A DNA stretch of 57,268 nucleotides, counting the filler, from Dugesia japonica (Eukaryota): NCBI GenBank assembly GCA_001938525.1. It is 6 parts of 6 records of this genome, joined end to end, with 100 filler letters (N's around TTAATTAATTAA, not from the genome) between each part and the next. Parts side by side here need not be neighbours in the genome. Positions count along the whole stretch, not along the records: positions 1 to 8,872 come from MQRL01599351.1; positions 8,973 to 17,393 come from MQRL01490433.1; positions 17,494 to 26,615 come from MQRL01630921.1; positions 26,716 to 38,364 come from MQRL01608265.1; positions 38,465 to 47,884 come from MQRL01646375.1; positions 47,985 to 57,268 come from MQRL01565500.1. The stretch is one strand, 5' to 3'. Of the stretch, positions 6,162-56,686 are shown piece after piece. Both the position numbers and the translations under genes were made by a program. The notes below the pieces were generated by a model that made no database searches, was not told the origin of the DNA, and worked only from the letters and a program-made list of their open reading frames with translations. Within the stretch, counting starts at the first letter, position 1. Each line of letters opens with the position of its first letter.

Positions 6162-6207
6162 TTGTTATATCTTTCGACGGATCAACATTCGGCGTCATCA
6201 GAGAAAA
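6162..6207 (-). ncRNA. Degenerate minimal hammerhead ribozyme, family B
   Basis: Minus strand reads ttct-CTGATGA-c-gccgaatgttgatccgtc-GAA-agatat-a-acaat. Shares the flank aaacgatggcaaatgtttgataaaaaataaataa with the 28727-28825 copy. Confidence 0.55.
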
Positions 6208-6354
6208 ATGAGTTTACAAAGTCCGTATTATTTAAACAAAAATTCAAGTAATTATACTGAATATAAGACGGCTATAATCCTAATTATTAATTTTTTTTCC
6301 TCCTTTACAAACTATTTTTATTAATGTAAAATTTCTTTATAATAATATATTTTT

Positions 6355-6530
6355 TACAATTGCAATTATTGCGAGAATAATTGTTGGACGTAACTATTGA
6401 TCGTTTTTCAGATTGATCGTTCATTTAAAATAAAAGTTTCGATCAAAATTTGTTTTTTTAGTTTTTTGAGATTAATTCGATATTTCGACTTTGTCTTCGT
6501 CAGTAATTGACTTTTTTAATTTATTCAAGA
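6355..6530 (-). repeat. Family-A PLE terminal repeat (pLTR) downstream of a PLE ORF remnant
   Basis: Full unit (ribozyme, then gatcgaaactttt, ...attattctcgcaataattgcaattgtaa) located 3' of the 6638-7015 ORF remnant on the same strand. Confidence 0.75.
6473..6509 (-). ncRNA. Minimal type-I hammerhead ribozyme, family A
   Basis: Minus strand reads caatta-CTGACGA-a-gac-aaa-gtc-GAA-atat-C-gaatta. Core intact, with one mismatch at the base of helix I. Confidence 0.7.
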
Positions 6531-6637
6531 TTTATGTTTATAATAGTAATAATTTTTGAATTAATTTTTTTTTATTAAACTTTAACTGGTTAATTTTCAT
6601 TCTTATTGAAATTTAATTTAATTATTCTAAATAACAT

Positions 6638-7015
6638 TTATTTTAGGATTGTCTTCTTTAATTTATATTTCTTCATGTTTTTTTCTATGAATTCTGTAGA
6701 AATGTAGCCAGTTCCCAGTGTTTTCCATGTTATGTGATGTTGTTGTTCTGGTGAAATTTTATATTTGTGTTGAAAGTGTTTTAAGACTTCAAACTTTTTT
6801 TCTGAAGAAACTAAACAACCAATGTTGTTTGATCTCTCAGTGCAGTTAAATGTATTCTGAGCGCAAAAATAATTCTTGTGATTTATGGTGAACACTATTT
6901 CTTCTAATTGATTACATTTGCTCCTTGTGAATCAAAATATTTTTAGTCTTGACATAGTTAAGTTTAGAATATTCCTATGTTTGATTGTAATGGCATTAAA
7001 TCTTAAATTATGCTC
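6638..7015 (-). pseudogene. Decayed 3' end of a Penelope-like element ORF (Zn-finger/GIY-YIG region)
   Basis: KCNQLEE.VFTINHKNY...FNC..., VLKHF and W..L.T motifs loosely resemble PLE C-termini. Followed by a hammerhead-bearing terminal repeat. Confidence 0.45.
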
Positions 7016-8872
7016 TGGTCCTCTCAGCAGGAAGTACGGGGGCTAGGTAATCGGTTTTGAATCGGATAGTCCTGTAATTCAACTGCCTGTCAGGTTTGAA
7101 AAAAAATAGAAGTACCGGACGTACATTTTCCCGGTATTCCTTNCGACGGTTCAAAAATTTTTAAATTAAATTTTTTTTACCTCAGTAGGCTATGGAAAAT
7201 TCTATTTTAAAAAAAAATAGTTTAATATGTAAAGTATTAAAGTATTAAATATTAAACATCTTCTCTTGAAAAGTAGAACTATTTCTTTCAAAAATAGCCT
7301 GCATTAAATTTATTAAAAATAGTTCACTTTGTCTTTTTCAAATATATAAAATATAAAAATTATATCAAAACCCAAATAATAATTAAACATTTAAAAGATT
7401 TTTGGATTTAATTNNNNNNNNNNNNNNNNNNNNNNNNNNNNNNNNNNNNNNNNNNNNNNNNNNNNNNNNNNNNNNNNNNNNNNNNNNNNNNNNNNNNNNN
7501 NNNNNNNNNNNNNNNNNNNNNNNNNNNNNNNNNNNNNNNNNNNNNNNNNNNNNNNNNNNNNNNNNNNNNNNNNNNNNNNNNNNNNNNNNNNNNNNNNNNN
7601 NNNNNNNNNNNNNNNNNNATTTTAATAACGCTTTAAATATCTTACAAAAATAGTTTTCTAATTATCTTGACTAAAGAGAAATTTTAATACATCGAAATCC
7701 ATGTTGTTTTTATTATCTAAAAACAAATTAATATATAAATAAATAAAGTTCCGTTAATAATCAAACTTTAAGTATCATGAAATGAGTGGAATTGTAAATC
7801 AAGTCATGGGATATACATTTACCCAGAATAAATATTCAGCAACAAACATATGAAAGCTGTTTTTTATAATTATTTTCTAGCGTCATCTTCAAACATTTTT
7901 TAATCTATGAAAAAGGTTTATATTAAAATTTTGATTATATAATCAATTGTGTAATCTCTTGAATAAATCGAATTAATTGAAAAATATGCAAAAATACTTA
8001 GATTTGCATGTTTAAACATTAATTTTGGAATCAATAAATCTAATAACATAACCCTCTCCCAATAAACTTCAAAGTTTCTGCACAAAATTTTAGAATATTT
8101 ACAATTAATTTTGTTATAATATTATAATTGTAATATCAATATTGCTTTGACCTCGAACCCAGCTATGTTTATGAATTTTGATACACTGATGTTGTAAGTC
8201 TTAAATATACTAAATATACATTTATACTATCATAATTTAATTATTATTGAGTTTATTTTTTCATAGATTAAAATTTGTGCTTGTGGAAANNNNNNNNNNN
8301 NNNNNNNNNNNNNNNNNNNNNNNNNNNNNNNNNNNNNNNNNNNNNNNNNNNNNNNNNNNNNNNNNNNNNNNNNNNNNNNNNNNNNNNNNNNNNNNNNNNN
8401 NNNNNNNNNNNNNNNNNNNNNNNNNNNNNNNNNNNNNNNNNNNAAATTTTAATCAATAAAAATTGGCAATGAAATTTAAAAGTTCGCTCAATTGAATTGC
8501 TTTCATTATTCATCATTAAATTTAAAGTCGAAAACGAATTTATGAAAGTTAATTAATTAAATTAAACATCGGAAATAGTTGAACTTTCTAATTTTCAGTG
8601 GAATAACTTGACTTTGAATTTATTATATTTCGTTGATTTCTCATAATTTTATAATTACAATTTATAATTAATAATAAAATAAATAATTGGTGATTGTAAA
8701 ACAAAGTATAAAAATAGTTACATACCTGGCAGGCCCTAAACAAAGGCTCAATAAAACATATCAGTAATTAGTAGTTAAATTACGTTAATAGTGTAAAGTT
8801 GTATTTTAATGTATATAGTGAATATAATTTATGAAACTGTAAAATCTATGAACGAATATTGATTATCCCGAG

Positions 8873-9737: not shown

Positions 9738-11809
9738 AGAAACTTGAAAACCAAATTGAAAGTCAACAAAAAGTAATTAATAAATTGAAGAATTGAATTT
9801 TCTATAAAATTATAACTTTTTAAAATTTTTGTTCAGTTGTAGTTAATTTGTATTCTCATTTTCATTTTTATTAGTAGCCATTTTCTTTACCAATAAAACA
9901 ATCAAGAAATTTCAACAAATCAGATTAGAGTATATCGGGTCAATTTGACCTTGGCTGGGGAAAGGGTGGCCCAGTTCGCCACTATCTACCTACTATCGTC
10001 ACCTTTCTTGAAAATTCCAAGAAATATTGCTTCGTTAAGCAGATCCATTGATACGCTGGTCGCCATGTTAGTTTTATTTGTTTTCTTCTTCATTTAAATC
10101 AACTAAAGTAAAACTTTTGATTCAATACTTTAGTTAAAATACAAATAATTCTTCTTTGAAATTCTTCTTGCTTTTTTGAACGCTTTTTTCAAAACTTGCC
10201 TTTACCAATTTATATTTTTAAATAATAATAAATTTAAACAAATTTATTATATTTATTTTGCAAATATAAAACTTCCGAATTTAAAATAATTTNAAAAATA
10301 AAGCGATAAAATCTAATTATTAAACTTTTCACTAAATATTTACATTTAAAAACTTTTGTTAATAAATATTTTACATAAAGCTTTGCAATTAAATTTCAAA
10401 TTTACATTAAAAAAATTTAAACTAATAAACATTTATTTAATAAAACCTTTTTGAATTAAATTTTAAACATATTTACTAATTTTTAAAATTACCTAACATG
10501 AATAAAGTAAATTAAGATTTTAATGATTTGGATGAATTGTTTGCAGCCGGTATTTCTTGATTAGCTTTTTATAATGAGATATTCAATTCATCTTGCATTG
10601 ATAGATTTTCTTCATAAATTACTACGATGTCGTTTTCTAATAATTTCACCGAATATTCAGAAGAATTGCTCCATTAAATTTTGAACCAATCGCAGAACAG
10701 ACTTTGGTGGAATGAGCTGAGAATTACGTAGACAACTCAATACCACTTTAATAATAACATGATCTGTGTATATCAGTCAAGTAATTATCATAACTCAGTA
10801 CAAGAAACCATTAAGTATTCAAAATATATAATTGATTAAAAGCTTTCCTATCGAAAAGATTATTTTAATTTTAATATTTCAATATCAATACTGTTGGGCT
10901 AGTTAACTATGAAAATTACTGCGTAATTGCCTCGAAAATTCAGAAAATTTATTGAGCAAAAATTAAAGTAAAATTGATTCGAAAATTCTGAATATTTTTT
11001 GAGAGAAAGTAATTTGAAATTTCCTCAGAAAAGCCAGCATAGTAATGAATGAAAATGACCACACATTTGTCTCGAAAATTCAGAACATGTATTGAGTGAA
11101 AATTAAGGCGAAAAAGCCTCATAAGAATCAGTTATTTACTGACAAGAATTCATGAGAAATTTCCTCGGAAGATCAGAGAAATTATTGACGAAAATAAGAA
11201 GGAGTATTACAGCGAAACTGAGGCGTGGCGATGAGCTAAAAGTGTGTTCTTTACGTAATTCTAATGGTAAAGCTATGGATGGGTCGATGAAAACTGATTT
11301 TCTGGGGGCTCGATGAACATGAAGCATTGTTTGCTCTTGCCAATTTTTCTAGTTGTTTGTGCACCTCTTGTAATCTGGTTTCAAATTTGCATTTGTGAAT
11401 CAGAAAATATTATGTTCTATGTTTAATAATTTTTCTTTTATTTATCTAAAACAATATTCTTATCATAAAGTAAAATTAGATAAGTCATCATAGAAATAAG
11501 AATCACACATACGAAATAAATCTTCGTGTAATGTTTAATGAACGTTGTATGTCCACTTTATATATTTTTTGTTTTTGCTCGTTTCTGATTTAAATAGTTA
11601 GGGATTCTTGCTAAAGCTTTGCACTAGCAAGGACTAGAAAATATGGCTACTTTAATGAACATCTTCTCTGGTTTATGCTCCAGAAGCGAACACGAAGCCA
11701 TATTAGGTCACAGGCCGAAGAATCGCGTAATGAAATTTTAATTTTCTTATCAAATGATATGTTAATTGATGTTTTACGGAAAATATATAATTTTATCTAA
11801 CTTAGGAAT

Positions 11810-12244
11810 ATGACCGAGTATTATCAACCACATATTCCACTAGTCCTTATCAACGATGGTGATGAAGGAACCTTCTGGGTTCCATGGAGAAATACTGTCG
11901 AATTATTAAATAAACAGCGGGTGAAACACGAGAAAGAGAAAATCGATTTGCTCCACAAAGGTGGAAGGCTCGGGGAAAAATTCGGAAGTACGAAACAACA
12001 GTTGATCGATACCCAGGCTACTCTTCAACTATGCCAACAGGAAAATTAGCGACTCCGTCAAGGAATGAATTTAGTTAAAGAAAGTGCGGCCAAATTAATT
12101 CTGCCACAAATGGAGAATAGAGAGGCTTTGGATCAGCTCGAGAATCATGTTCTGTTGTTGGCACCCGAGGTTGTCGCAGGGCAGGAGAATCAGCAACTCC
12201 CCATTATAGTGAAGGTGGAGTCCCTAGCAGTATATGACGAATAA
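11810..12244 (+). pseudogene. Unknown coiled-coil-like ORF with one in-frame TAG (12047-12049)
   Basis: The frame continues RLRQGMNLVKESAAKLILPQMENREALDQLENHVLLLAPEVVAGQENQQLPIIVKVESLAVYDE*. Visibly GC-richer than the flanks. Confidence 0.4.
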
Positions 12245-12479
12245 ATGTTGAGAGTGTCTGAATTTGTTTTATGTTCTTCAGTTGCGGTAATGTTAATAAA
12301 TTTAAAGTGATATGTACGTTATGATATAAGATTGATGGTGATCCACAAAGGCGGTATGTGTTAAATAGTTAATGAGCAAAATGTTAAAATTGTTAATTTT
12401 CTTTCTTATTTAGTTACAAAATAAATTATTTTTAATTATTGCAAAATGTTTTTAAAGATTTATTATTCAATTAATTATA

Positions 12480-12803
12480 GTGTCTATAAACAGCGAGGAA
12501 GTAGTAGGGAACAAAGATTTAGCCGCCGAAAAGTAAAGATAGACCGAAGAGCATCCCTACCTGCGAAACGAGATCTTAACGCTGAAGGGACAAGTTATGA
12601 AGGCAGCGAGAAAATTCAATCAACTGATAGAAAAGGAGTTGTCTCTCCAGCACGCAAATCGGCTCATGGCAGAAATCATCAAGACATACGNCGACAGCAA
12701 GAGCTCGATGTTCACCAGATTAAGAATCTTGTGGCTGAATTATCGACCGGTACCAGATTATCTGAATGGAGGCAGTAACACCGTGGATTTAAATGCAGAA
12801 TAA
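12480..12803 (+). pseudogene. Unknown coiled-coil-like ORF remnant
   Basis: ...LRNEILTLKGQVMKAARKFNQLIEKELSLQHANRLMAEIIKTY... with upstream stops. GC-richer. No family recognised. Confidence 0.3.
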
Positions 12804-14474
12804 ATTACTGATGTACATATGAATAAACGTTAGTGTTGTCATGGACTTGTTTTGAGTTACGACCGTGTTTACCATAATGAAATCAGCGTTTCACAAATTG
12901 AATTTTTTTTTAACTGAGCAAATACAAGAGAGATTGCTTTCGGAGTTCATATATTCAGTAAATAAGACGCGATACCACAAAATCGCGCTGAACCCGTGGA
13001 AGAGGGGCATGTCACAGAGGTGACACCAATGCTTGTGGTTTTTAGGTATGCCCCTAGACATGACAATGAAGTATTAAATATGAAAGCAAGTTCAGAGAGA
13101 TTAGAGACAAATTAAAACATAAAAAATCCTAAAAGCCCAACAATACTAATCCATTAAAAAAAATCAAAGTGCAGTTATTTGAAACACATTGTATTAAAAA
13201 ATTAAAATATCTTTCTCTAAACGTGATAATCATTTTAGAAGTTTATGAAGAATTTTTTAAATTCAAACCAATCTAATATATTTGTCGATAATTAAAATTT
13301 ATCAAAATAAAAAAGGTTCACTTTGCAAAAAGGTTAAGCAACACTGGTACACTCAAGTTTTCAATAAAATAATTATTTTAATTAATTAATTGAATCTAAG
13401 TGTTAAAAGTTGAAATATTAACTGGTCAGGAATAAAATGATTTTTATAACTTTTTTGGAATACTTTGCGATTCCGTTTTTCGCAAGGCTAGCGTAAGTAA
13501 TTAGACAAGTTTACTTTAATGACAAAAATTTAACTCGATCTATAACTAAAATTTCTTGGAAAATTTAGTTGCTTAGTAGCACCAATGATTAATGTAAATT
13601 AAAATCATTTTCAAAACCTGAAAAGAAATCTGATTGAAAAATAAATCAAAAGGAGAATTTAATATTATTTCTCGAAAAAAAGATTGTAAAGAAATTATGT
13701 ACCAACAATTTATTATGTGAAAATGATACGCTACGGTGAAATCAATAAATCCAAGTCGATAATTTGAGTAAATATTAAATTAATTGAACAATTTCAAAAT
13801 ATATCATAATATCCCAATAGATAACCAATAAATATATTCACATTTAGACAAAAATAACCAACTAGACACCGTGCATTAGTATTAGTAATTAATAATAATT
13901 CTGGTTGAGATCAAATGAGAGAGAGAGAGAGAGGTACGTCTAACAAACTATCATCGATTCAAATTTATAAAATTCATTCATCATCACCCCAATACACCAA
14001 ATCGATCTATATAGTACATGCGCTCATCATTTGGAAATCAATTCCAACGATCAACTAAAATCTTCCATAACAATAATAATGTTAAAAACAACAACAAAAA
14101 TAAATCATCATCAACAGTATCATCATTATCAACCATTTCCGAAATACATTTCAATAAATATTCAGTAAAGTATCTAAAAATCAATACAATACACCTAAAT
14201 AGAAGGAATAGAAAAAATCAAATCAATTGCAATATTAAGAGAAAGAAGTCAAGAGAAAAATATTGAATGAATAAAATGTCGAACCAAATCATTATTTTAA
14301 AATTAACAGTGACAAAAGCAACCATAATTGTTGCGCAAGTCTCATTATATAAACTTACTACTGAAATTTACAAAAACTTGATTTGTCTATCACAGTAGAC
14401 ACGCGCATATGGTAAACTATCGAGATCAAACTGAAATTTTGATTAATTAAATAAAAAATTCCAAGAAATTTACA

Positions 14475-14800
14475 TAATCAATAATAACAATAATGATCGA
14501 TAATAATAGTGATCGATAATAATAATGATTGATAATAATGATAATCGATAATAATAATGATTGATAATAATAATGATTGATAATAATAATGATTGATAAT
14601 AATAATAATGGATAATAATAATAATGGATAATAATAATAATCGATAATAATATTTGATAATTATAATAATCGATAATAATAATAATCAATCATAATGATA
14701 ATTAATCATAATAATAATCGATAATAATAATCAATCGTAATAATAATCAATCATAATAATAATCAATCATAATAATAATCGATAATAATAATTAATAATG
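14475..14800. repeat. (AAT)n/ATCGATAATAAT microsatellite, probably in the calcineurin 3' UTR
   Basis: Directly visible low-complexity repeat downstream of the calcineurin stop on the minus strand. Confidence 0.85.
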
Positions 14801-15159
14801 AAAATAGATAATTATTTATAATCTAACAACGGATTCAAATTAAAGAAATGTTATGACATAAATATTGATAAACGGACAACACAATCATCATCTAAAAGAT
14901 ATTATCATTATAATTATAATTATCATTATATTAGTTGTTATGGCATAGATTGAGAAAAAATAAATCAACAGCATCAGATCAACTGATCATAGTCAAATGT
15001 GTGATAGTTTCGTTTTTGTTAAATTAAGGTTTAGAAATAATAATTATAATAATAATAAGAAGAAGAATAAGAAGAATAAGAATAAGAATAGTGATGATAC
15101 TATCGTATCTTGGTTCAGATACCAATAATAATTATATCGATAATAAGCACATTAAATCA

Positions 15160-15598
15160 CTATGCCACATGCGATGATGATGATGCAGATGATTCAACAG
15201 CATTAATTGGAGACGCTTGGTAAATGCTGTCTGCACCAGCACTCGATTGAGCGATTGAAGGTGAAGCTGCTAAAAGGATATATTTTATTTTCACTTAATT
15301 TTCAAATAAAAATTACTTGAATTACCTATTAATTTACTGTTTACGGGATAGCTAGGTCTACGCGGTGGCATTCGTTCGTTAACTTGGTCAAGAACCTTTG
15401 CTTCCTCAAATGACTGAATTGGATGATGTGGGGAAACTCCAGTCATTGCTAAATTAATATCAAATGACAAAATGCAATATCAAATTACAATATGAATTAC
15501 CTCCGTGAATAGAATCTTTACCACCTGTCAACAGTCCCATTGGTAGCATTCCATTTGGAGTGAGTCCTTTTAATTCAAGTAATGATTCACTCTCTTCT
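15160..15598 (-). CDS. PPP3CA: Calcineurin A (PP2B catalytic subunit), last three exons: 15501-15598, 15326-15448, 15160-15269
   Basis: Spliced product is [32 protein letters not shown]|[25 protein letters not shown]..|..HVA*. It matches the calcineurin A segment after the CaM-binding helix plus the autoinhibitory SFEEAK.LD..NERMPPR motif. Introns are GT-AG and phase-compatible. The paralogue cannot be assigned. Confidence 0.93.
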
Positions 15599-16109
15599 CT
15601 AGAAAACAAAATTAAAAGAAAACTTATTTTTAAAGTAGTTTATCATTCATTCATCTGTTAGATATTTGTTCTATAAAAACATTATATAACGGGGTTAGAG
15701 TTTTGTAAAACAACAAAGGAATATTTTAGTTCTTTTTTGTCGTGTTATACAAACTTTTATCTTTTATAATATTCTAAATTTATAACTTCTAAAGGATTAT
15801 CAATATAATTTTTTTCCAATATCAAATATCTAACAATTTTGCAATATTCATTTTATATGCGCCATCTACCATAACCATATAATTGTAGAAATTGTTCCTG
15901 GATTATTTATACATTTGACATTTGTACTTTCTAGTCTAAGTCGCATATAANGGTAATGGAAATATCTGTTTCAGAAAGTAATTGGATTTGTTACAGATAT
16001 TTCTATTCCACAATAAAGATTGGCATTACACATATAAAGTGAGTTATTTGAATGTAGCTATTGACAAATAATATCATCAACTATAATCAAATCACTGATT
16101 ATTCTATCT

Positions 16110-16298
16110 TATAAGGAAATAATTATTAATTAATAATTTCAGCCAATAGAAAGCGATTAAATTGAATAATAATATTTAATTCATTTTAATCCCTTTTAGT
16201 TATCTAATCAGTTAGTGTTGCAGTAGCGAAATAAATGATGTCTAAAAATATTAGTTGTGATTTGGAAAAAAAATTATGAATTGAAGATTTACCTAATA
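16110..16298 (+). mobile_element. Solo LTR of the tRNA-Leu-primed Gypsy family
   Basis: tataaggaaat..atttcagccaatagaaa..gaagatttacctaata matches the LTR at 47123-47302. Flanks tatct/tacct form a degenerate 5-bp TSD. Confidence 0.7.
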
Positions 16299-17393
16299 TA
16301 CCTGATGAGAAATTTCAAACATACTATTTTTAAATATTTCATGTTTAAATTGTAAATTATCACACAGATCTAGTTTTTTCAATAATTTAACCATCATTAT
16401 TTTACATATTTCTGCATATTTACTTGAAAATTGGGTATAAGATACTAGTGATCCATGCTATTAAAATATGAGTCAAAGTAGTTGNNNNNNNNNNNNNNNN
16501 NNNNNTTATTATTATTTGCAAGACATTGAAAAATCATTATTGAAATAATATAAAACTTATACGTTTGTTATAACAAAACGAAAAATATTAATGAGTAATT
16601 GATGGAATATTAAATCAAGTCAATTAAATTTAATGTATTATCTGTTTCGAGACTATGTCATTTGAGAAATGCATACTGTTTATTTTTATTCCACTGAGAA
16701 ATATTTTATGAAAATGAAAGTAATAAATTAATATTTCAATTACCTTTTGAATCATATTGAATATAATAAAGTTATTACAAAATGAATATAGCAAGTATTG
16801 GATTTTATTATATTACGAAAAATGAAATTAACGGAAAATTTAATCCAAAAACAAATCCAATAATCGTCAAATTTAAAATCTGTTCTTATCACATTAGGTT
16901 AACAAAATTATTAAATTATATTATGTTTCCAATAGAAAAATTTTGATTAGGGAACAAGATTTCATTTAATAGAACTTGAATCAGAATCACATAACTGATC
17001 TAATAAATTTAAATAGAAATAAACTTCTACAATTTATTGGACTAAAAATAGAAAAAAATATTTCATTGAAAAAAATTAAAGAAAATCATAAAAGAAGAAT
17101 TGTGGAAAAGTTAATTTGGATACATCTAGAATGTATCGTAATTAATTCAACAATAATGATATTTCTTCAAACTATATATATTTCTTATTATTATTATCAT
17201 CATCCATTTTTAAATGAATAAAATGAAAAAACAATGTCAATAAATGGTTATAAATAAAGATTATTTTCCCGAGATCATTATGATTTACAAAATATCAATT
17301 TATGACTATCAATATGCTAATTATAATCAAATATTGTTTCAATATTCGCATATTAGGCATTAAAATTGGTTTTTAAAAATATTTTTATGATAA

Positions 17394-17493
17394 NNNNNNN
17401 NNNNNNNNNNNNNNNNNNNNNNNNNNNNNNNNNNNNNTTAATTAATTAANNNNNNNNNNNNNNNNNNNNNNNNNNNNNNNNNNNNNNNNNNNN
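17394..17493. other. Artificial scaffold linker
   Basis: N44-TTAATTAATTAA-N44. Confidence 0.95.
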
Positions 17494-17752
17494 TAAAAGG
17501 CTCAAGTTGAAACTTCTCGATCAACTTCGTAACTTGTTCACAAATGTTATGTCCAATGGGAGTTGATGACAATAATCATTTACAAAATTTTTTCGGCTGT
17601 TTCAAAATTGTCAGTAACTCCTCGTACAAACACAACTAATTATACAGGGTCACTTACATATGTGCTTTCATCAAGAGCCAAACTATAAGTCGCACACTTA
17701 TTTATCTGCTCTTTTAACGTCTCTAGAATATTTTCTGCAAGTTGACTGATAC
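17494..17752 (-). mobile_element. hAT (Charlie/GTF2IRD2-like) transposase fragment
   Basis: ISQLAENILETLKEQINKCATYSLALDESTYVSDPV*LVVFVRGV carries the YSLALDEST motif, with stops. Confidence 0.85.
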
Positions 17753-18065: not shown

Positions 18066-18106
18066 TTGTCTGATGATGACGGTTGATCTGTCGAAATATA
18101 TAACAA
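18066..18106 (+). ncRNA. Minimal type-I hammerhead ribozyme, family B (best-formed copy)
   Basis: ttgt-CTGATGA-t-gacgg-ttgat-ctgtc-GAA-atatat-A-acaa gives a 4-bp helix I, a 5-bp helix II, a palindromic helix III and an AUA cleavage triplet. Confidence 0.75.
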
Positions 18107-19306: not shown

Positions 19307-19361
19307 AATATCAATAGAAAACCTAAATACAGCATATTAAAATGTCAATAGAAATCTCAAA

Positions 19362-19413
19362 AACAATCAATGGTTACGTCCAACAATTATTCTCGCAATA
19401 ATTGTAATTGTAA
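19362..19413 (+). repeat. Family-A PLE-terminal fragment
   Basis: aacaatcaatggttacgtccaacaattattctcgcaataattgtaattgtaaa matches 55306-55359. Confidence 0.75.
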
Positions 19414-20239
19414 AGCATATTAAAAGGTGAAATTTTATATGAACTTTAAATATTTCAGTTGATAATACAGGGGTGCTAACGATTTAGATGACGAGAAAAA
19501 TAATATTTAAATGAATATTAAATAATGAAAGAATTGAGATTAATTATTATTATTATAAAAATTAATAAAAGTTAGAAAATACATAAGTAAAATTAAGTTA
19601 TTAGCAAAGTAACTTAATACACTAAAATAATAACATTAAATAAGTATTGTCGGGCTAAAATTTTATCGAAGAAAAAACGATATATAATAATAAATATATA
19701 ATATAATTTCAAATGATGCCAAATCATTCTAATAAATAAAATTATGTAAAATACATGCTAAGAAAATTTTGAGAGATTAAATTCAAATTAAATAATTAAT
19801 TAAAATACATAAACCTTGCCAATAAAGTAAATGAGAATTGTTATAATATTTTATGAACTTGATCCCAAAACTTTTCTTGTTAATGAAATATAAAAAGTTG
19901 ATGTGCGACCAATAGAAAATCAGTATGGCTAAAAAATTTTATAAATAGTGTGAGGAATGATATTTGAATTGTTTGATTTCCAATTTTTTGCGCAATTAAA
20001 GTTTTAAAAATTTAAAATATTTCAAATAATTAAAATAATTATTGCCTATATTTGTTTGAATATTAAAACTATTCTAATCCAGTTTTTCAATTTATATAAA
20101 AATTTGTTTTAAATAAATGTTTGATGATGATAGCGTTTTTCTTGCTAATAAATAGAATTGAGAGTAAGAATCGTGTAAAAAACATTTTATTTGTTGATGC
20201 CTTCTGTGGATTTTTTCTGAGTAATTGAATAGTAGTTGT

Positions 20240-25882: not shown

Positions 25883-25917
<35 letters not shown>

Positions 25918-26572: not shown

Positions 26573-26615
<43 letters not shown>

Positions 26616-26715: not shown

Positions 26716-28356
26716 TTAGTACAAATTCCGACTAACGAGTTCCCAGATAAACTCCATTTCTCAAAATAGTTATTCAAAACAAGAGAATATTTTCTAATGT
26801 CCAATAGACTTTTTTTATATTAATTATATTTTCTCATTTTCACATTAATTATTAATTGTTCAACAAGATTGATATCTAATTGAAATTTTTTTATAAAATT
26901 ACTTTAAAGATTTTTTATTTGAAAAATGTGGAATTAATTATTTATAATTAATGAAATAAGAAATGAATTTATTTTGAAAGAACACCATTAACTCTACATG
27001 AGAAATTTTGTCATAACTATTATAAATTAATGGTATAAATAATTCTTTTTTGTAAATAACTAGTAATTTGATCAATAGCCTTCCTTTTTAAAAATTTTTA
27101 ATAAATATATTATTGTTCAGTTATTAAAAATGACATCAATTTAATTAATTTAAAGAAAAACTTAAAAATAAAAAAAAATTAAATATTTGGTATTTCTATT
27201 AATTATATTAAATATTTCATGGAATCTCCAATATCAAGACGTGAATCACAGTGAAACCAAATAAAATAGAATATATATTAAACTGTCGGTGCATTCATTT
27301 TTCATTTTTATTTCAATTTAAAACTCAAACTTTAATTAATGGTCTCAGTTTATTGGAATTTTTATTGTGAATTTCCATTATTAGAACTTAGAAATGACAT
27401 TGATTAATAATTTAAATGTCCAATTCCGTTAGAGTTGATTGAGCTTCATTTAGATTGTGAATTTAATTTAATTTAAAATCCATGTTAATGTTACATTTAT
27501 TAGTAGATTTAATTTTATTCTGAAAAGTTAATAATTCGGTCATTAATTAAATTTGCTATATTTCAAAAATAATATTTAAATTTTTCTAGTTATAATTAAT
27601 ATTTATTAAATTAATATTAAAGTAATTTAAATTGACATTGAATCTAAATACAAATTTTCTAATTAAAAATTTTAAATTTGTAAACGTTTTGTTAATATGA
27701 AGCGATATGATTACAGTTTGTATATTTTTTCTCACAAATTAATCGCCCATAAGTTTTTGTCATCTTAAATATGATTACAAAGCCAATGAGAAAAATGTTC
27801 TAGTATGTTTTCAACAGAAACTACCCAATGAGATATATAATACGAGTTCTTATACTCTTATCAATATCAATAAAGATATCAAGTAAATAATCAATATTTC
27901 ATTAGTCATCTATTTACTCGAAATATTGATTAATATATCTATACTACTTTTGTAATATTTTAATTTAAATTTATTTTAAGAGAATTTGTATATCCAACTA
28001 TTTTCATGACTTTCGAATTTGATGGTTTTATTTAGATATATTTCCAGAGAATTATTAGATTTATTATTTCTCTTCATATCTTAATAAAGAACGTTTAATT
28101 ATTACAGATTTAATGAAAATCAGTAAAAAAAATTAGAATTACTCTTGAGGTTTTGGTCAAACTTATAAATTTAAATCGAAAGTAGAATGATGAAATTCTG
28201 AACTTTTCATCCTCTTAATTGAAATTTTGTACAACTATTCAATGTATTTTATTTGTTTATGAAATGAAAATTTTAAATTCAATTTCGTAAATAAACTTAT
28301 CGAATACTTAATAATTATATTATTAAACTGATAAAATTCGTTATACAATTAAACTT

Positions 28357-28515
28357 ATTGTGAGAATAATTTTTGGATTTAAACCATGGATCACATTTTT
28401 AAAGTTTCAATATATTCAAAGTGTAGATCAAAATGTTATTGTTTTTTAATTTTTTAGATATCTGAATTTTCGACAATAGCGTTCTTCAGGGATTTACTTT
28501 TTGATTTATTCAAGT
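28357..28515 (-). repeat. Diverged family-A terminal repeat with degenerate hammerhead (28456-28496)
   Basis: Minus strand reads aaatcc-CTGAAGA-acgctattgtc-GAA-aatt-C-agatat. The distal attgtgagaataatt motif is retained. Confidence 0.5.
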
Positions 28516-28781
28516 TAATAATTGAAATAAAAATAATTTTGAAATTTAATTTATTTTTAAAACACAATGACAAATTTTTAATAAAAAATAAATCAAGCCA
28601 CAAGTGACGTAATTAGAAAATTTGGGCCCTTATGCAAAAGTTTTTAAAGGGCGTCTAATTTTTTTTATTTAGAACAAGTACTAGGGATATAACTAGTTAA
28701 TTAATTAATTTAAATAAGTATGTAATAAACGATGGCAAATGTTTGATAAAAAATAAATAACGCTATTTATAATAAAAAATT

Positions 28782-28825
28782 ATTGTGAAATATTTCGATG
28801 GATCAACCGACATCATCAGAGAAAA
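28782..28825 (-). ncRNA. Degenerate hammerhead, family B, in an inverted repeat at the 5' edge of a PLE
   Basis: Minus strand reads ttct-CTGATGA-t-gtcgg-ttgat-ccatc-GAA-atattt-C-acaat, directly upstream and antisense of the PLE RT remnant. Confidence 0.6.
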
Positions 28826-28829
28826 TGAA

Positions 28830-31800
28830 AAGTTCCTTTGCTAGAAACAATAGATCAGAAAAATATTTATGGGAAAATAATGTTAGTGATCATACTGAAA
28901 TAAATATACCTACCTTTCGTGAATTGTTGACAATAGCTACGGATAATGTTTCGTTTTGGTATTTTAATAAATGATATAAACATATAGATAGGGTGGCTAT
29001 GGATATTCCACTATGTCCTACAATAGCGTTGATTTTCTTGAATAAACTTGAAGAACGAATGAGCTTATTTTCTTTGAATAAGCCTCCTGCTTATAAAATA
29101 TATGTTGATGGCATTTTTCTTATTTTTGGTAATCGTGAACTTGTTTTGCCTTTTCAAAGTTTTTATGAATGAAAGTTTTTTTTCTGTAGAGGAGAAAAGA
29201 AATGATATTTTGCTTTTTTGGATATTTAAATTGAAAGGAAATCATCATATAATATACGACTGTAATCTACAGAAAGAAAAGTGATACCGGAATAAATAGA
29301 TTTTGTGATCCAGCTTATAATAGGAACACGATAAAATGCTCAGTGTTTCGTTTTTGGTCATTGTCCTCAACATATTCAAAATCCATGAATAGCATCGAAT
29401 ATTTAATAAAGTTACTGTAAGCAAACTGATATAATAAACAATTTTTAAATTCGTTGACTTCGCAGATCATTGATAAATTTTAGTTCGTAACAATATTGAT
29501 TTCGATATATAAGTTGAAACTATGTTGAAAAATTTTGAATCTAATAACACTTTGTCAAATTGTGCTGGACCATTTATTTTATCGATTCCTTATTCTGAAG
29601 GTTTCAAAAAGTTAAAATATTCGATTCTGAAAGCTGTTAAGGATCTTTCTTTATTGAAAATCGTTTCTACTTTTCAAAAAATTGTTCATAACTTTGTTTA
29701 TAAATTTTTATGCAATGGGTGTGATACCCAATAGATTAGAGAGACTGCTCGGAATCTCTGTAAAAGTGTCTGCTGTGCTCATAATTAAACTAAGTAACAC
29801 TGTTTGAAATATCCCTTATTATCACAAATTTGATATTTAAACAATTATCATTTAATTTCAATTTTAATTTTAATAATAATTCTACATCACTTCCCGTTTT
29901 AAATTGAGTGCACCGATTAAATTGCTGGCTTCAATCTGTCTATTGAAACGATCTTTGGAGAGCCATCTAAATTGATTTCGAATGTTTTGTTATCTTCAAT
30001 ACGACTGCTACCTCTCAGCTACCAGTGTTGTTAGTTTTGCTCAAGCGTGACAGCCATCGTAAATCCTTTTGAATTCTCTGAATTGCAGTGATTTCGGTAG
30101 AATGTTTCGCGGTTTGGGTGGCGATATGTCTATAACTATTCCTACCTCAGAGACACTTAATTTCAAGGAAGATTTTTTTAGCGATGCTTCAAGGTTCTCG
30201 ATTGCTTGCTGTTTGATTATTTCATCCATTGTTATGTGTTCGACTTTCTTGCTTAGTGCGTTTATTCTTGAAAGAAAATCCGCTACTGTGTTCTCCAATT
30301 CCTTTAAATATTCTAATTTGAAGGAAAATTGAGCAAGGAATTCAAGCCATATACATTGTCTGGGATTTTGATCTTTCATAGTTGCAATATTTAATAAAGG
30401 CTGGTTGCAAGTCTGTATTGTGAATTGTGTAGAATCTAAATTGTGCTGGGAATTCTTAACTGCAACTACTACTGCTAATAGTTTTCTGTCGAAGGTTGAG
30501 GAATTTCTCTACAGAAGACAATTTTCTTGGAAAAAAGACAATTAAAGAATGTTTTCCTTCGGACTTCACTTGCTCCAATGCAGCTCCAACTGTTTCTAAT
30601 GATGCATCAGTTCTTAACATAAATTGTTTTGACTTGTTTTTTTTCGATAATTAGCTTGTAGAGTGGTGCAATATTTTCAGATAAATTTAAAATGAGCCAA
30701 GGATAAAAGGCAACGCAGCCTTCAAATTTTTGCAAGCTCTTTAAGTTGGCTGGAAGGCTAATTTCTTTCAAGCGTTCGATTGTTTTAGTTTTAGGAAGGA
30801 TTCCATTTTCTGATATATTTAATCCTAAAACTTCTAAATACATATATCTGCATAGATCTCTAACTAAATAGAATAGATGGTGTTAGTTACTTTTTGTTTA
30901 TAATCTTCANAGTCTACTTTATTTTTTGAAAATATTAGAATATCATCAATTTATGATATCGCGAAGTCTTGATGCCCTCTCAGAATTGTATCCACGAATC
31001 TTTGAAAAATAGCTGAGCAATTCTTCAACCCAAACGGCATTTTACAGCATTCTAATAAACCAAATGGTGTGATAACCACAGTTTTGTAAATGTCCTTTTC
31101 TGCTATCGCTATTTGGTAATTGCTTTTTAAAGGTCTAATTTGCTGAAAATTGTAGAGCCCCCAAGTTTATCCAATAGATCTTGGATTCTAGGTAAAGGGT
31201 ATTTGTCTGGTAGTGTTAGTTCATTTAATTGTCTGTAGTCTCCACAAGGTCTCCATGATCTATATTGTTTCTTAACGACAACAAGTGATGAGGCCCAGTT
31301 CATGTTGATAGGGAAAATTATTCCAGCTCTCAGAAGACGATCAAATTCTCTTTTTACTGCATCAAATTTTTCTATAAATAATCGTCGAAATTTCTGTGCT
31401 ACTGGATTGCTTTTCGTGTTAATATTCATCTGAATATTAAAATGACCATTTTGTAGGACTTGATTTGCCATTTCTACACAACAAAAGATTTTATGGTTCA
31501 ATAATTTAAACTATGGGTTGATTTACACATGCTGATTTTAGGGTGTTATTTAATATGTAAATACTTTTACTATATATATGTAATATATTTACTACAGATT
31601 ATAAATATAGTGATATGTGTAGATATCCTTATGTTAATAACAAAAATACACCTTTTAAAAATATGATATTTTCGATGTATAATAAATAAATTGTACAGTA
31701 TAGCTATAGCTTAGAGATCAAAATTTTATTTTAAAAAGAGAAGCCAATTAAAGAGATAGGTTCTCTCAGTTAAATTGAGTCTAATTTTTCTAAAAAAAAT

Positions 31801-33810
31801 GATCAGTATTTATACTTATTTTACGTATGCTCTTGCTATCAGACACACACACACACAAAACAAATAACTATGCATATGCACATATTTAAAATAAATAATA
31901 CCTACTTTATTTTTTCACCAAAATAAATAATTCCTGCATTATTTTTAATAAAACCTAAATTTCCACTTTAATAAAATGAAATCAATAATATAAATTCCTT
32001 AAAATAAAATCAATAAGATAACACCTGTTCAAATTAAAATATCAAGTTGTAACAAATTTTCCACTATTTTAAAATTATAATACAATAAACCCGAAATAAT
32101 AAAATCATAAAATAATAAAAATTATTAAAGTCATATTGATTAATATAAAAAAGCCAAAATCAATGATAAATGCCGATATAGGATAATTGAATGAACTTGA
32201 ATAGGTTTAAATTCGAATATCAAATAATAAATAATAAAATAACAAAATCAATTTCAATTTCTCTGAACTTGAATGGGTTTGAATTCGAATATTGATTTGA
32301 TTGATCTCATGTATATATGTGTGTATATGACGTGTGCTTTAATTTGAACACAATAATCAAATCATATTGCCTAGAATGTCCAGGTATAGTGCGGCCGGAA
32401 GTAGAAAATTTTATGCATTTACTATTGCAGTTAATATTAACATCGTGATATGTAAAAAAGTTAGCACCCAATATAGGTGAGAATACATCTGCAACAATGA
32501 AATCCCACGTCATGGGGTTCTATGGTTACTGATGCTGAAAGAAAGAGTTCTGAGACCATAGCTTAATATTGGTTCAATGGTTGCAGACACCAATGAGTGA
32601 GTTGAACTACTACTAGCCAGCTTAAAAATTTCTTTTGGAAGAATACTTTTATCAGCTACACTGTCAAAAAGGAATGCTACTGCTGTTTTCTCTATATAAA
32701 GATCAATAAACAAAGATTTACGCTTGTCCAAGTCTAGTGTTGTATTAACACTAGTTGAGGAGACAGTGCTCGGTTCTACTGTCTCCTATGATCGTTTTCC
32801 GAATTGAGTGGATTCCAGTTGTACGGGCTTTGACATTTGATGATTTTATTTCCAAATTTTCTGTGATAAAAGCATAATTGATCGGATGGTTTCGATTTCG
32901 ATTCATACTTGTTTCTATCATTTGATTTTTTATTAAAATTATCCTGTACTTTGAACAAGCTTGACGCTCTTTCATTTGAAATCTTGATGAGCTTATCAGC
33001 AAATTTCGCCATTTCTGATAAGGTAAGAAAATTCTTGCAAATCTGAATATCCGCAGGCATCATGGATTCAAATTAATTTTTGAGAAGAACATTAGTTTCC
33101 AAGTCAGCATTCTTGTCGAAGCATTTGACAAGGGCTTGGAGTTTTCGTAGAGCAATGAAAGGAGATTGTCCATCCAATGATTGAGTGTTCCAAATCTTTG
33201 AATTGCATCTTGTGGAGTTAACTCGTAATTCTCCAAAAGTGCATTTTTTAAATTGGTGTAACTAGGATCACCGGAATATTTAAGAAATGTTTCATATTCT
33301 ATGAGAATTTCCATTGGCAAATTAGATATTAGGTGCTGGAATTTGGTCGATTCTGAAGTAATCCTGGCGAGTTTGAAAAAGTTCTCCACTTGCAGAAACC
33401 AGAGTTTGACATTGCGCATAAGAATTTCAAACATGCATTGATTACAACTGTCACTGTTACTTCTGACAACAGATGTTATGTTCATAATTAAACTAAGTAA
33501 CAAATTTTGAAATATCTCTTATTATCACAAATATGATATTTAAACAAATATAATTTAATTTCAATTTTAATTTTAATGTATAATTATTAATATTAATTTT
33601 ACAGTGTCCAAGAGCATAATCGTTTGGTAGTGGTAGTAATATTACCGAGCATAAATATCAAACTAAATGTAATACATTTCAAATTTTAAAAATTTGTCTA
33701 AACAATTTAAAAATTATTAGGAGAGAGTACTATGTGAGGCGTTAATGATTAGATTTCATATACTGAGAATTAATGTAAAAGCAGCTCTTTCTACTAAATT
33801 AATATAAAGT
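28830..33810 (+). mobile_element. Decayed Penelope-like element (RT + GIY-YIG), split by a Gypsy insertion: 28830-29770 and 33604 to about 33810
   Basis: RVAMDIPLCPTIA (GVAMGSPL.P..A) and YVDGIF (YVDD). VYKFLCNGCDTQ*IRETARNLCKSV|QEHN is a GIY-YIG motif restored on removing 29771-33608. Confidence 0.85.
29771..33603 (-). mobile_element. Gypsy (Mag-like) LTR retrotransposon, decayed, with both LTRs and TSD
   Basis: LTRs 33474-33603 and 29771-29886 (TG..CA). TSD GTGTC at 29766-29770 and 33604-33608. PPT gggaagtga and PBS-like tgttgtcagaagt. Gag WFLQVE..F..RITS..TKF and LCFYHRKFG, protease FLFDSVAD, RT WRPCGDYRQLN..KYPLP..FSKLDL and an RNase H remnant. Integrase is largely deleted. Confidence 0.93.
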
Positions 33811-33875: not shown

Positions 33876-33951
<76 letters not shown>

Positions 33952-53832: not shown

Positions 53833-54371
53833 AATATTAAATTGGCAACTAAATCAGTGCGCATTTTTAATGAATGTTTTATTTAAATGTTTGTTCTAAA
53901 ATGATATATCAGAAAATTTCTGTGGTTCGATGTATAAAAATATCATGCAAATAAAAGTTGAAATCAGCGGTTTGGTTTAATAATACTGGTTTTTGACTAA
54001 GTTAAACGAAAGATTGTGTAAGCCACATAAATCTTCGATCATTCAACAAAAGTTATTTCAGCTTGATTAGGATAATTTTGCCTCATTCGCCCTATAGTTT
54101 TGACCTTGCCCCGGTCGTCAAAAAATTTCATGGATGACAAAATTTTCATTTTTGATGATTATTTCAAATTCTATTAGGTTTAGAGTTTTGCCCAAAAATA
54201 CCAACAGTGGAATTTTGAACGTGATATATTATGATGTTGCCTGGGGGATGCCAACAGGTCATTGATAATAATGAATATTTTACTGTTTAATAAATAAATT
54301 TTTGAGCTTCAAAAAGTTGTTTTTCTATTTTATTATTAAAAATTCACACTAACTTAGTTGACAATCTAATA
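53833..54371 (+). mobile_element. Internally deleted mariner
   Basis: TIRs tattaaattggcaactaa / ttagttgacaatctaata. HSPYSFDLAP motif. Confidence 0.75.
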
Positions 54372-55068
54372 ATTAGAAGTATCAATTTATAGTATTGGTT
54401 AAAGTTAGAAAGTTATTTTTAAAATTAATTTATATTAATATAAGAGATAGATTTTCTTTTCGATAAAGAGCTTCAAAGAAAAATTTTCAAGTATACCACT
54501 TAATTTTATCTACTCTTCTTTATTAATAAGAATTTGTTGTAAATAAATTTTACGAAAGGAAAAAAACAAACAACTAAAATTTGATTTTCTGTATTTAATT
54601 GATGGTTGACATAAATGATAGGAATCGTCTGAGTAAATCAGAGAAATATATAAAACAGAAAATTTATCTGGATATATGTAGTAAATTATCACTAATGAAT
54701 AAAGCTAGATAGTCTATATCGAAGGATTTTTCTATCATTTTTCTCGTTCTAAACATCAAAACTAATTTATTATATTATTTTTCTTGAAAGAAATTTCTTT
54801 CCAATGATTAATAATACCAGATTTAATTTTATTTAATAAANNNNNNNNNNNNNNNNNNNNNNNNNNNNNNNNNNNNNNNNNNNNNNNNNNNNNNNNNNNN
54901 NNNNNNNNNNNNNNNNNNNNNNNNNNNNNNNNNNNNNNNNNNNNNNNNNNNNNNNNNNNNNNNNNNNNNNNNNNNNNNNNNNNNNNNNNNNNNNNNNNNN
55001 NNNNNNNNNNNNNNNNNNNNNNNNNNNNNNNNNNNNNNNNNNNNNNNNNNNNNNNNNNNNNNNNNNNN

Positions 55069-55360
55069 AAATTTAGGTTTTATTTATTGATATTGGATAA
55101 CAATTCGATATTTCGATCTTGTCTTCGTCAGGAATTGACTTTGTAAATTAAATTGACTTTAATTTAAATTGACTTTAAATTTAAATTGACTTTTTAAAAA
55201 AGTCAATTCCTGACGAAGACAAGGTCAAAATATTGAATTGTTATCCAATATCAATAAATAAAACCTAAATTTTGATCAAAGCTTTTATATTAAATGAATT
55301 CTAAAAAACGATCAATGGTTATGTCCAACAATTATTCTCGCAATAATTGCAATTGTAAAA
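55069..55360. repeat. Family-A head-to-head fold-back with two hammerhead cores (55101-55137 minus; 55204-55240 plus, G12->A)
   Basis: 55069-55142 is the reverse complement of about 55199-55272. The spacer consists of repeats of aattgacttt. The plus copy continues to the gcaattgtaa terminus. Confidence 0.85.
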
Positions 55361-56291
55361 GTCCATAACTCTAATTAAAAGGTTTGAGTGTAGTTCATGT
55401 CATTCTTAGTTTGAGTTCATTTAGAATTCGTGATTCTTACTATTGTCTGTTGTGGTTTCTATGCTGCTTGTTTTATTCTGAAAATTTTCTTCGAAAGGAA
55501 GGTATTAAGACACTGTTTGTCAGTGAGGAAACATTATTTTATAGATAATGCCTGTTATTCATTTTACTAGTAGTAGTACTGTTACTCAAAATACATATCT
55601 ATCAACAATTATTTATAAAAGTTCTATCATTTAAGTTTTAATTAAATTAATTATTGTATGTATCATCTAAAACATTTATTAGAGAGTTTTATAAAATTAG
55701 TTGCAAAAGTGGATTACAATCCTCTCTATAAAAGATATCTATTACACAAAAAAGATTTAATATTATTTAAGTCATGTCTTAAATATTATAAATACAAATA
55801 ACCTACGTTAATTTTGGTGCAAGGTCCATCGTCATACAATTTTACACCTTTCATTTGAGAAACATCTAAACAATGTTAATACAAGCAACATAACTGTTAT
55901 TTCAAATTCGCATTGAGATCCATCAGAAAGTTTCATTAATCTATTGGTATCTATATTCTTTCTTCGTTAACATATCTTCTTCATCACTGCAAGACACTGA
56001 AATCCTTTTAAAAAATTTTGTTTATCTCTAAATAATTTCTATAGTTTTCGAACTGAAAGTTTGTGAAAATTAAAAACTGAAACATAAAATTGTAAGTGTA
56101 TATATAGTACTTTTTAAATCTACTCAAATTTTCACTCCGAAATTTAAACTATTTAAAACCACGCTCTCTATACTAAATTCATATAGATTATAGCATTAGA
56201 AAATAAGTAATAAACTAAAATATAAGTGTATTTTTAAAATTCATTTAAAACCTAAAAACTATTTTTATAACCGTTTGATCTGTCAATAAAT

Positions 56292-56686
56292 GAATTCGCT
56301 TTTAACAACAAAATTTTTTTTTTTTCCAAAAATATTTTAACAAACAAAGATCAAAGTTGCTGGTCTTTTATTTTTCTTATAACAATAAAATTTAGGTTTT
56401 AAAAAAATTATACAAAAATAGATTTATCATAAGTGCTTTTCAGCAAATAACCGAGAAAATGTTCGTTTAATTTTATATTACAATTAAAATCCAATAAAAA
56501 TTAATTTTACTCAGACTTATTTACAATCTTTTTTTTATGTCAAAGTTTGTAATAATAATATACTGAACATCAGTTCCTGATGAAGGCTATGCCGAAATAT
56601 TGGAAATAAAAAAACAGCAACTTTGATCTTTGCTTGTTAAAATATTTTTTGAAATAAAACATGTTTTGTTGTTAAAATCGAATTTA
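56292..56686. repeat. Family-C inverted repeat (about 56292-56370 / 56607-56686) with hammerhead core at 56574-56604
   Basis: ttc-CTGATGA-a-ggc-tat-gcc-GAA-atat-T-gga immediately precedes the right arm. The arms share aacaaagatcaaagttgctg / cagcaactttgatctttg. Confidence 0.65.

Follow-up and report, generated by a model that had tools for sequence, protein, structure and literature searches.

Background

A minimal hammerhead of metazoan Penelope-like elements (PLEs) has reportedly been treated by Lünse, Weinberg and Breaker (RNA Biol 14:1499). The minimal hammerheads of PLEs have a palindromic AUAU helix III, form several families per genome, and occur as thousands of dispersed single copies and as opposite-strand pairs (Cervera & de la Peña 2014, PMC4209133). 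Fig. S3 of that source gives an AUAU helix III for Schmidtea, Nematostella, Latimeria and C. remanei and AUAUAU for Drosophila, and a 3-bp helix II is published for C. briggsae. PLEs in general show 5' truncation, an inverted copy in front and an optional tail on one end (PMC8557442). In vitro, an internal start of RT sets the tail, with uncut RNA serving as the principal substrate, and the ribozyme is protein-assisted (PMC11167929). In axolotl, non-LTR retrozymes number as many as 120,000 copies (Cervera & de la Peña 2020, PMC7229834; Li et al., 10.64898/2026.07.22.740005).

The window analysed here (the whole stretch of 57,268 nucleotides from Dugesia japonica, assembly GCA_001938525.1) consists of six scaffolds of 8.4-11.6 kb each with N44-linker-N44 joints, and has a base composition of 25.7% GC. 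Names such as 18070+, 44744+ and 56577+ are core start coordinates.

Results

All nine hammerhead motifs of the original prediction were found at their positions and strands, and their assignment to five of the six scaffolds and to three sequence families (A, B and C) was confirmed. They match the published consensus of PLE-type minimal type-I hammerheads, palindromic AUAU/AUAUAU helix III included, as had been proposed. Both core boxes (type I CUGANGA and GAAA) are intact in 8/9 copies, the exception being 55210+ (G12A), and the G10.1-C11.1 pair follows one extra nucleotide in 8/9, being absent in 28489-. Three copies (18070+, 44744+, 56577+) are completely formed and six are damaged; among the copies that had been listed as main ones, 6503- (first helix I pair mismatched), 55131- (C.A mismatch within helix II) and 55210+ each have a defect. 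Helix III is self-complementary in seven of the nine (ATAT in five, ATATAT and AATT in one each) but not in the decayed family B copies 6201- and 28819-. Helix II, said to differ yet remain paired, does differ among families, but this is not within-family covariation, and the mismatch in 55131- is an exception to the pairing; one of nine pairs was changed on both sides, a value reached in 110 of 500 shuffles (five alignable copies only).

The full type-I descriptor matched four times, each time with a palindromic helix III, against a mean of 0.098 and a maximum of 2 in 500 local dinucleotide shuffles, and the core with G10.1-C11.1 and GAAA occurred seven times in perfect form (shuffle mean 0.034, maximum 1). 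The 25-nt pattern of families A and C occurred five times (shuffle mean 0.15); the CTGANGA core by itself is unremarkable (25 in the window; shuffle mean 13.9, maximum 27). That the nine motifs are accidental matches in AT-rich repeat DNA is hardly credible. The low GC content, the grouping of the copies into three families, hence their non-independence, MFE folds that differ from the hammerhead fold, and the Rfam result (nine rows at E<=5, none of a hammerhead family, the top ones being miRNA models on palindromes) speak for such an explanation; the full core, the extra nucleotide, the G-C closing pair and the palindrome recur in each of three dissimilar families, the published consensus is matched, and the excess of perfect cores shows that the motif frequency is not that of shuffled AT-rich sequence. 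At the motif level, chance matching is refuted by the shuffle comparisons.

The fully formed family A hammerhead lies at 44738..44774 (+) and has a helix I of 6 bp, a helix II of 3 bp with a 3-nt loop, the helix III ATAT and C17 at 44768. The direct family A copy 44733-44829 ends before the tail and is abutted by an inverted family A 3' part with the complete tail (44648..44729, -), the tail being on one end only (44648/44829). The unit at 55197..55360 (+) contains the hammerhead 55204-55240, with G12A at 55227, and then continues for 126 nt until it stops sharply at its 3' end, 55360. An inverted copy at 55069..55149 (-), of which the hammerhead (55101-55137) has the C.A mismatch in helix II, faces 55210+ head to head; a 17-bp repeat (55133-55193) lies between. 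The copy at 6344..6600 (-) has the full tail and a hammerhead (6473-6509) with the first helix I pair broken, and shares about 75 nt of extra upstream sequence with 28489- (0/1000 shuffles). The latter is the core of a diverged, decayed family A-like copy at 28341..28568 (-), 69-72% like family A, with the helix III AATT, a broken helix I and without the G10.1-C11.1 pair. Family A sequence without a hammerhead was found as a tail at 19307..19414 (+), as a tail with a fold-back at 5739..5879 (centre about 35 nt 3' of the cut site), and as a fold-back palindrome without core at 2197..2383 (centre 2258/2259), followed by the tail. This palindrome is centred on AATT, 2-5 nt 3' of the predicted cut site. 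Its reading as a mark of the cut site is unsupported: it is one of four family A inversions, and a hand estimate from the 16 four-base palindromes in the family A unit gives about 23% by chance. No ORF joined to family A or C was found in the window, and the ORF 6641-6931, upstream of family A, had no Pfam or Atlas match.

The reads show family A to be very abundant, in keeping with the very high copy number that had been implied. Sequence leaves the reference at 55360 in 888 contigs (X1) and 660 reads (X15), and the same end was seen in a further 50 and 18 reads; depth is greater over the tail than over the core. G12 (55227) accounts for 93% of the X1 contig depth and is found in 379/432 X15 reads, 25/35 X18 reads and just 3/9 X14 reads; G12A is a minority state in family A. 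Among the variants listed, variation within the motif is confined to loop II, to N17 and to the reversion at G12, and by these variants the core appears constant.

Several of these observations could also be accommodated if family A, and perhaps C, were an independent, non-autonomous unit of about 165-240 nt that arose from a pLTR and is moved by PLEs in trans, like dispersed retrozyme monomers. No ORF is linked to A or C, the abundance of family A is very high, the direct copies 44733 and 55197 share a start point 13-14 nt before the core, and an inverted piece is joined at 55196-55199 (three X1 joints; loose ends in X14 and X18); an origin of retrozymes from PLEs has moreover been argued (bioRxiv 10.64898/2026.07.22.740005). 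We nevertheless think this unlikely. The position 55197 is not the absolute 5' end of family A because two copies share the further upstream 75 nt described above, joints at 55197 are favoured by a reference stretch that began just 7 nt ahead of it, the hammerhead stands in no tandem array, and the inverted and one-sided-tail layouts are those of ordinary PLE truncation (PMC8557442).

Family B provides the tie to a PLE frame. Its fully formed hammerhead lies at 18066..18106 (+), with a helix I of 4 bp, a helix II of 5 bp, the helix III ATATAT and A17 at 18102; helix I forms in just one of the three copies. A copy at 6099..6298 (-), with a decayed hammerhead at 6162-6207, lies directly 3' of a family A tail. 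The third, at 28720..28831 (-; decayed hammerhead 28782-28825), stands in inverted orientation where a PLE frame has its 5' end, about 40 nt from 28819-. This frame (28867..29770, +) is 5'-truncated and decayed, is interrupted by stops and frameshifts, and contains RT motifs, thumb, linker and the start of a GIY-YIG endonuclease. A decayed Ty3/gypsy-type element (29776..33585, -), with 107-bp direct repeats at 29776-29881 and 33479-33585, is inserted in the endonuclease region, and the C-terminal end of the same GIY-YIG domain follows at 33676..33786 (+). The remnant thus shows 5' truncation with an inverted copy in front. By tblastn, 70/70 query proteins match the remnant 28867-33786 (best E 5e-44 to 4e-46), in the order RT, then C-terminal GIY-YIG, colinear with residues 161-533 of P0001. 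The relatives scanned have RVT_1 in 12/12 and GIY-YIG also in 1/12; they carry no PLE label, and the remnant is presumably a PLE by its domain order and motifs. Searching with representatives by phmmer returned 458 matches, P0010 had only weak matches in PDB, to retron and group II RTs, and nothing was obtained by Pfam on the read-through frames (0/15) or by a word-based search for homologs of the decayed RT fragment (0/59 candidates). No 3' hammerhead was found behind 33676..33786 before a microsatellite and a 162-N gap, and resemblance to family B at the PLE's own 3' end was undetectable (422-786 of 1000 shuffles scored equally high).

The formed family C hammerhead at 56574..56604 (+) has a helix I of 3 bp with one wobble, a helix II of 3 bp, the helix III ATAT and U17 at 56601. 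By read depth, the repeat extends over about 56434-56690, and an inverted copy (88%) of its 3' part 56604-56687 lies at 56290..56373 (-). The majority state of family C differs at the unconstrained N7 and has a Watson-Crick pair in place of the helix I wobble; at position 56570, 97% of the depth differs from the window. A conserved upstream hairpin masking the core, seen in MFE folds of 8/9 copies, is not general, being lost in the family C majority. No RNA dataset covering 55240-57200 was listed.

The original prediction held that an ATAT monomer could not close. This stands for families A and C, where A15.1-U16.1 would close a 2-nt loop; in family B the monomer could close a 4-nt loop, though at a modelled +0.4 kcal/mol. 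The dimer requirement derived from it is favoured by the monomer geometry of A and C, but no same-family, same-strand tandem pair is present in the window, none of 21 TRF rows places a hammerhead within a tandem array, and a protein-assisted alternative has been published. With ViennaRNA, active dimers are less stable than the dimer MFE by 6-22 kcal/mol. Neighbouring A and B copies, at distances of 302 and 330 nt, were rejected as heterodimers, their helix I strands cross-pairing over just 0-1 bp; A and C have ATAT in common, and their helix I strands cross-pair over 3 and 6 bp in the model.

Copies occur in polyA RNA on both strands, and 95% of placed X15 reads continue into other sequence. 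RNA 5' ends at positions equivalent to 44769, which had been suggested as a sign of cleavage, did not materialise: neither starts nor ends pile up at the cut site, though ends in the libraries examined (oligo-dT and cDNA only) are uninformative. The presence of copies in such RNA and the A/C compatibility would favour dispersed copies retained as active ribozymes and cleaving host transcripts as trans-dimers, A-C heterodimers among them. We hold this to be very improbable: six of the nine copies are damaged, the RNA ends show no pile-up, the C17 fraction is alike on both read strands (54/122 versus 110/223), the modelled dimer energetics are unfavourable, and in vitro activity is low even in cis dimers (Cervera & de la Peña 2014, PMC4209133). 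Quite improbable, too, is a bolder form in which family A would be a 165-nt non-autonomous PLE-derived element of tens of thousands of copies, whose hammerhead, with its 3-bp helix II and 3-nt loop, would be among the smallest in nature. Given the many host transcripts that contain family A copies and the cross-compatible arms of A and C, trans homo- and heterodimers would cut host RNAs in vivo, and fold-backs like 2197-2319 would be genomic fossils of the cut.

Discussion

Taken together, we consider it probable that the nine motifs are minimal type-I hammerheads of three repeat families, likely the pLTR ribozymes of PLEs left as short, truncated, inverted insertion remnants; to cut, those that are intact would need either dimerisation or the element's protein. 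The remnants are likely scattered through a repeat-rich, animal-like genome. What is seen directly is the motif excess, the inverted and fold-back layouts, the sharp family A 3' end, the high abundance of family A and the PLE frame beside one family B copy. The proposed link to PLEs is accordingly strengthened: 28819- lies beside a PLE frame, and the inverted copies at 44648-44729, 55069-55149 (A) and 56290-56373 (C) are of PLE type, as is the sharp 3' end of A; against it, the tie of family B is adjacency to the frame only, for 1/9 copies, and no frame is joined to A or C.

What is published on PLEs suggests that a tandem master element is transcribed and that RT starts internally, at a fixed point downstream (3') of the hammerhead, corresponding to the end at 55360. 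It would usually halt early, then fold back or switch template, and such a stop would leave pLTR fragments of 100-250 bp preceded by an inverted copy. The sequence on both sides of the scissile bond is present in 9/9 copies, so that their templates were uncut RNAs. Within the master RNA, two hammerheads of the same family would pair via helix III, which is palindromic, and by exchanging helix I strands; the dispersed single copies, with the damage noted above, are likely inert passengers in decay.

The families resemble the minimal hammerhead of PMC4209133 in being type I, with CUGANGA plus one extra nucleotide, G10.1-C11.1 and GAAA, in the palindromic helix III stub and short helix I, in occurring mostly as single dispersed copies, and in having several families per genome and opposite-strand pairs. 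An inverted hammerhead copy at the truncated 5' end of a PLE, as with 28819-, is found in Cotesia (PMC4209133). They differ in that the 3-bp helix II and 3-nt loop of A and C are among the shortest published, the A, B and C sequences are absent among the rows of Fig. S3 compared, and family A may exceed the reported 2,000-9,000 copies per genome (PMC4209133). With the Poseidon PLE PAc of Anolis carolinensis (Frangieh et al. 2024, PMC11167929) they share a pLTR hammerhead, AT-rich insertion sites, a fixed 3' end 100+ nt downstream, an optional tail and a cut site without RNA-seq ends. The PAc frame starts inside the hammerhead, whereas here this is merely suggested for B and failed the similarity test (the frame opened by the ATG of the family B core, compared with PLE N-termini, did not rank among the best 25 of 4578 chunks, and no chunk was significant), and the one-sided tail is about 66 nt here but 30-40 in PAc. 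Non-LTR retrozymes (PMC7229834) are likewise short non-coding repeats with type I hammerheads, and monomers exist, but they are tandem arrays with mostly canonical hammerheads; here all nine are minimal, 0/9 is in an array, and tandem units of 150-450 bp each with a hammerhead were not seen.

The families A, B and C were not found in the literature searched on hammerheads in Schmidtea and planarians, and may be in print. The present data add three sequence families to a hammerhead class described in 2014, whose features are already published; families missed by Rfam were recognisable by reading the sequence alone. The abundant, transcribed family A would be a convenient test bed, with thousands of copies for tests of covariation and selection, and the insertion junctions of such a family can be mapped against the cut site, a modest gain that needs the whole genome. 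Exact-pattern scans returned 0 matches in metagenome contigs and 0 in prokaryote genomes. The 17 viral loci from such a scan are unrelated (34-61% GC, the flanks of the window in none); one recurrent viral group has the palindromic ATAT and arms that pair in part.

Hammerhead motifs in the window

All nine minimal type-I hammerheads of the original prediction were found at their positions, and they are real and were correctly recognised. Named by core start and strand, they were assigned from alignments to family A (6503-, 44744+, 55131-, 55210+ and the diverged 28489-) and family B (6201-, 18070+ and 28819-), with 56577+ as family C. The motifs were in excess over shuffled sequence: the full descriptor (complete core; helix II, >=2 bp; helix I, >=3 bp) gave four matches (18070+, 44744+, 56577+ and 55131-) versus a mean of 0.098 in 500 local-dinucleotide-preserving shuffles, and the core with G10.1-C11.1 and GAAA occurred 7 times versus 0.034. 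Three of the nine motifs were fully formed and six damaged, by a broken first helix I pair (6503-), a helix II mismatch (55131-), G12A (55210+) or, in the remainder, several lesions each. An Rfam search of the window did not detect the motifs. Covariation was not demonstrated; 1 of 9 pairs was double-changed among the 5 alignable copies, as equalled by 110 of 500 shuffles, and this pair is a difference between families A and C. By sequence similarity, a distant relationship between families A and C is possible (14/1000 shuffles score as high); relatedness of families A and B was undetectable (445/1000). The motif type is already described in the literature; its marks in passages of Cervera & de la Peña 2014 (PMC4209133) are an extra nucleotide, G10.1-C11.1 and the palindrome.

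Geometry of cleavage

As predicted, an ATAT helix III is impossible in the modelled monomer, where A15.1-U16.1 would close a 2-nt loop; for ATATAT, a 1-bp helix with a 4-nt loop would cost about 5 kcal/mol. A swapped dimer could be constructed for each of the three families, but the predicted energies (-5.6, -12.0 and +0.2 kcal/mol) were above the respective dimer MFEs (-23.8, -18.4 and -22.3), these nearest-neighbour values leaving out tertiary contacts of the core. No same-family, same-strand pair was found within the window. Close same-strand neighbours of families A and B (302 and 330 nt apart) had arms without cross-pairing, and those of families A and C (1367 nt apart) had cross-pairing arms. 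For hammerheads of Penelope-like elements (PLEs), sections of PMC4209133 report opposite-strand pairs 100-700 bp apart, a predominance of single copies, and low activity as dimers and none as monomers; the dimer model is stated in part of a review (PMC6765202), which cites Lünse et al.

The scissile bond was spanned by 9/9 copies, which were therefore derived from uncut RNA, in agreement with a passage of PMC11167929 that describes PLEs as using mainly uncut RNA as substrate and their ribozyme as protein-assisted. Most likely, any importance of cleavage would be confined to tandem master transcripts, and the dispersed copies would be by-products of truncated reverse transcription, now decaying.

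A Penelope-like element beside a family B copy

The inverted copy 28819- is separated by about 40 nt from the start of a decayed + strand frame. A 97-residue piece of this frame matched 458 proteins (E<=0.001). With 70 of 150 relatives as tblastn queries (two repetitive ones and those <300 aa excluded), 70/70 matched 28801-29782; residues 161-533 of one relative (P0001) were colinear with 28867-29770 and 33676-33786 (E 4e-46). Among relatives scanned for domains, RVT_1 was found in 12/12 and GIY-YIG also in 1/12. Reverse transcriptase followed by GIY-YIG with a CxxC...YIGET motif is, we presume, the order of EN+ Penelope-like elements. The endonuclease region is interrupted by a decayed Ty3/gypsy-type element (29776-33585; RVT_1, RNase H and DUF7041 matches), which therefore arrived after the PLE copy. 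The sequence past 33786 runs into a microsatellite and a gap, and no hammerhead was detected on that 3' side. The tie between family B and the PLE is one of adjacency only; an inverted hammerhead-bearing copy ahead of a 5'-truncated PLE is a published layout (Cotesia example in a section of PMC4209133; also described for PLEs in part of Craig et al., PMC8557442).

The core ATG of family B opens a frame of >40 codons at 6093-6198 (-), resembling Anolis Poseidon, in which the hammerhead contains the start of the frame; the family B frame did not match PLE N-termini significantly. A second GIY-YIG C-terminal remnant was located at 8029-8194 (-) (tblastn E 0.001, one query). About 130 nt past it, at about 7890 (-), lies a stretch that resembles the core but does not form helix II; its similarity to families A-C was not significant.

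Inverted copies and tails of families A and C

No coding frame linked to family A or C was found in the window; family A may be either a truncated pLTR or a short element that stands alone. Inverted copies lie directly upstream of these families at 44648-44729, 55069-55149 and 56290-56373, and family A forms fold-back palindromes at 2197-2319 and 5796-5879. Family A tails also occur without a hammerhead; a 27-nt tail word had 6 occurrences at <=1 mismatch (0 in shuffles). Parts of PMC11167929, PMC8557442, PMC7229834 and a preprint (10.64898/2026.07.22.740005) deal with tails, non-autonomous forms and the inverted arrangement. A 17-bp unit that stems from the 5' end of the inverted family A copy is repeated four times between head-to-head hammerheads (55133-55193), and loose ends of RNA reads indicated a similar layout at another transcribed locus. 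A YAG (56570-56573), retained in the read variants listed, stands three bases ahead of family C helix I; by analogy with the 3' splice site reported in a passage on D. virilis Penelope (PMC4209133), it could be a 3' splice site. No spliced reads were seen there.

Read evidence

Reads of four runs (X1, contigs with depth; X14, X15 and X18, RNA reads) were compared with one stretch, 55190-56720, at 80% likeness. In X1, 33,566 contigs matched. Their summed depth, which is no copy number, was 8-13 over most of the unique flanks, rose to 10,000-27,000 in family C and reached about 1.1 million on the family A core. The family A depth ratio is 1.4e5 (raw) or 4e3 (each contig overlap counted 31-fold), and thus thousands of copies or more is a fair reading, in line with the high copy number that had been anticipated. 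Published totals, in sections of the sources, are about 2,000 + 1,300 hammerheads for S. mansoni, 4,000 for coelacanth and 9,000 for Xenopus (PMC4209133); for retrozymes, the axolotl total is as high as 120,000 (Cervera 2020, PMC7229834). The abundance of family A alone is therefore not new.

Among the variants listed (40 of 256), G12 was the majority in family A (93% of X1 depth, 379/432 X15 reads and 25/35 X18 reads; only 3/9 in X14), and loop II was variable (26% of X1 depth). The family C majority had another base at N7 and a Watson-Crick pair versus a wobble in the window copy. Family A had a sharp end at 55360 in reads. RNA reads covered both strands of 55190-56720 and stem from other loci (flanking bins empty; 94-97% continue into unlike sequence). 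No position was found in this stretch where many RNA molecules start or stop, a weak null because the libraries were fragmented and read at 6-25%; RNA ends at the cut site were likewise absent for the Anolis carolinensis Poseidon PLE, according to a portion of Frangieh et al. (PMC11167929).

Other elements

The window (57,268 bases, 25.7% GC; six scaffolds of 8.4-11.6 kb each, with 100-base spacers) contains many decayed mobile elements and AAT microsatellites and has the appearance of an AT-rich assembly from an animal. A 218-bp near-perfect palindrome (19092-19309; 105/110 arm positions match) abuts a family A tail, and another tail (1536-1604) is embedded in a degenerate AT-rich satellite (1383-2219; period about 22 bp). 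Clustered broken ORFs (35138-38252), without a match in Pfam or PHROG, resemble what we take to be Polinton/Maverick structural genes. Of the further decayed mobile-element pieces, three are presumably Tc1/mariner-like by motifs (4013-5588, 20512-20766 and 39473-39739) and one is the RNase H of an LTR element (45527-45886). In seven viral contigs (L002, L003, L006, L009, L012, L014 and L015), a CTGATGA core with a GAAATAT palindrome recurred, with partly pairing arms and a poor helix II; this could represent either a minimal hammerhead of an aquatic virus or a coincidence within coding sequence.
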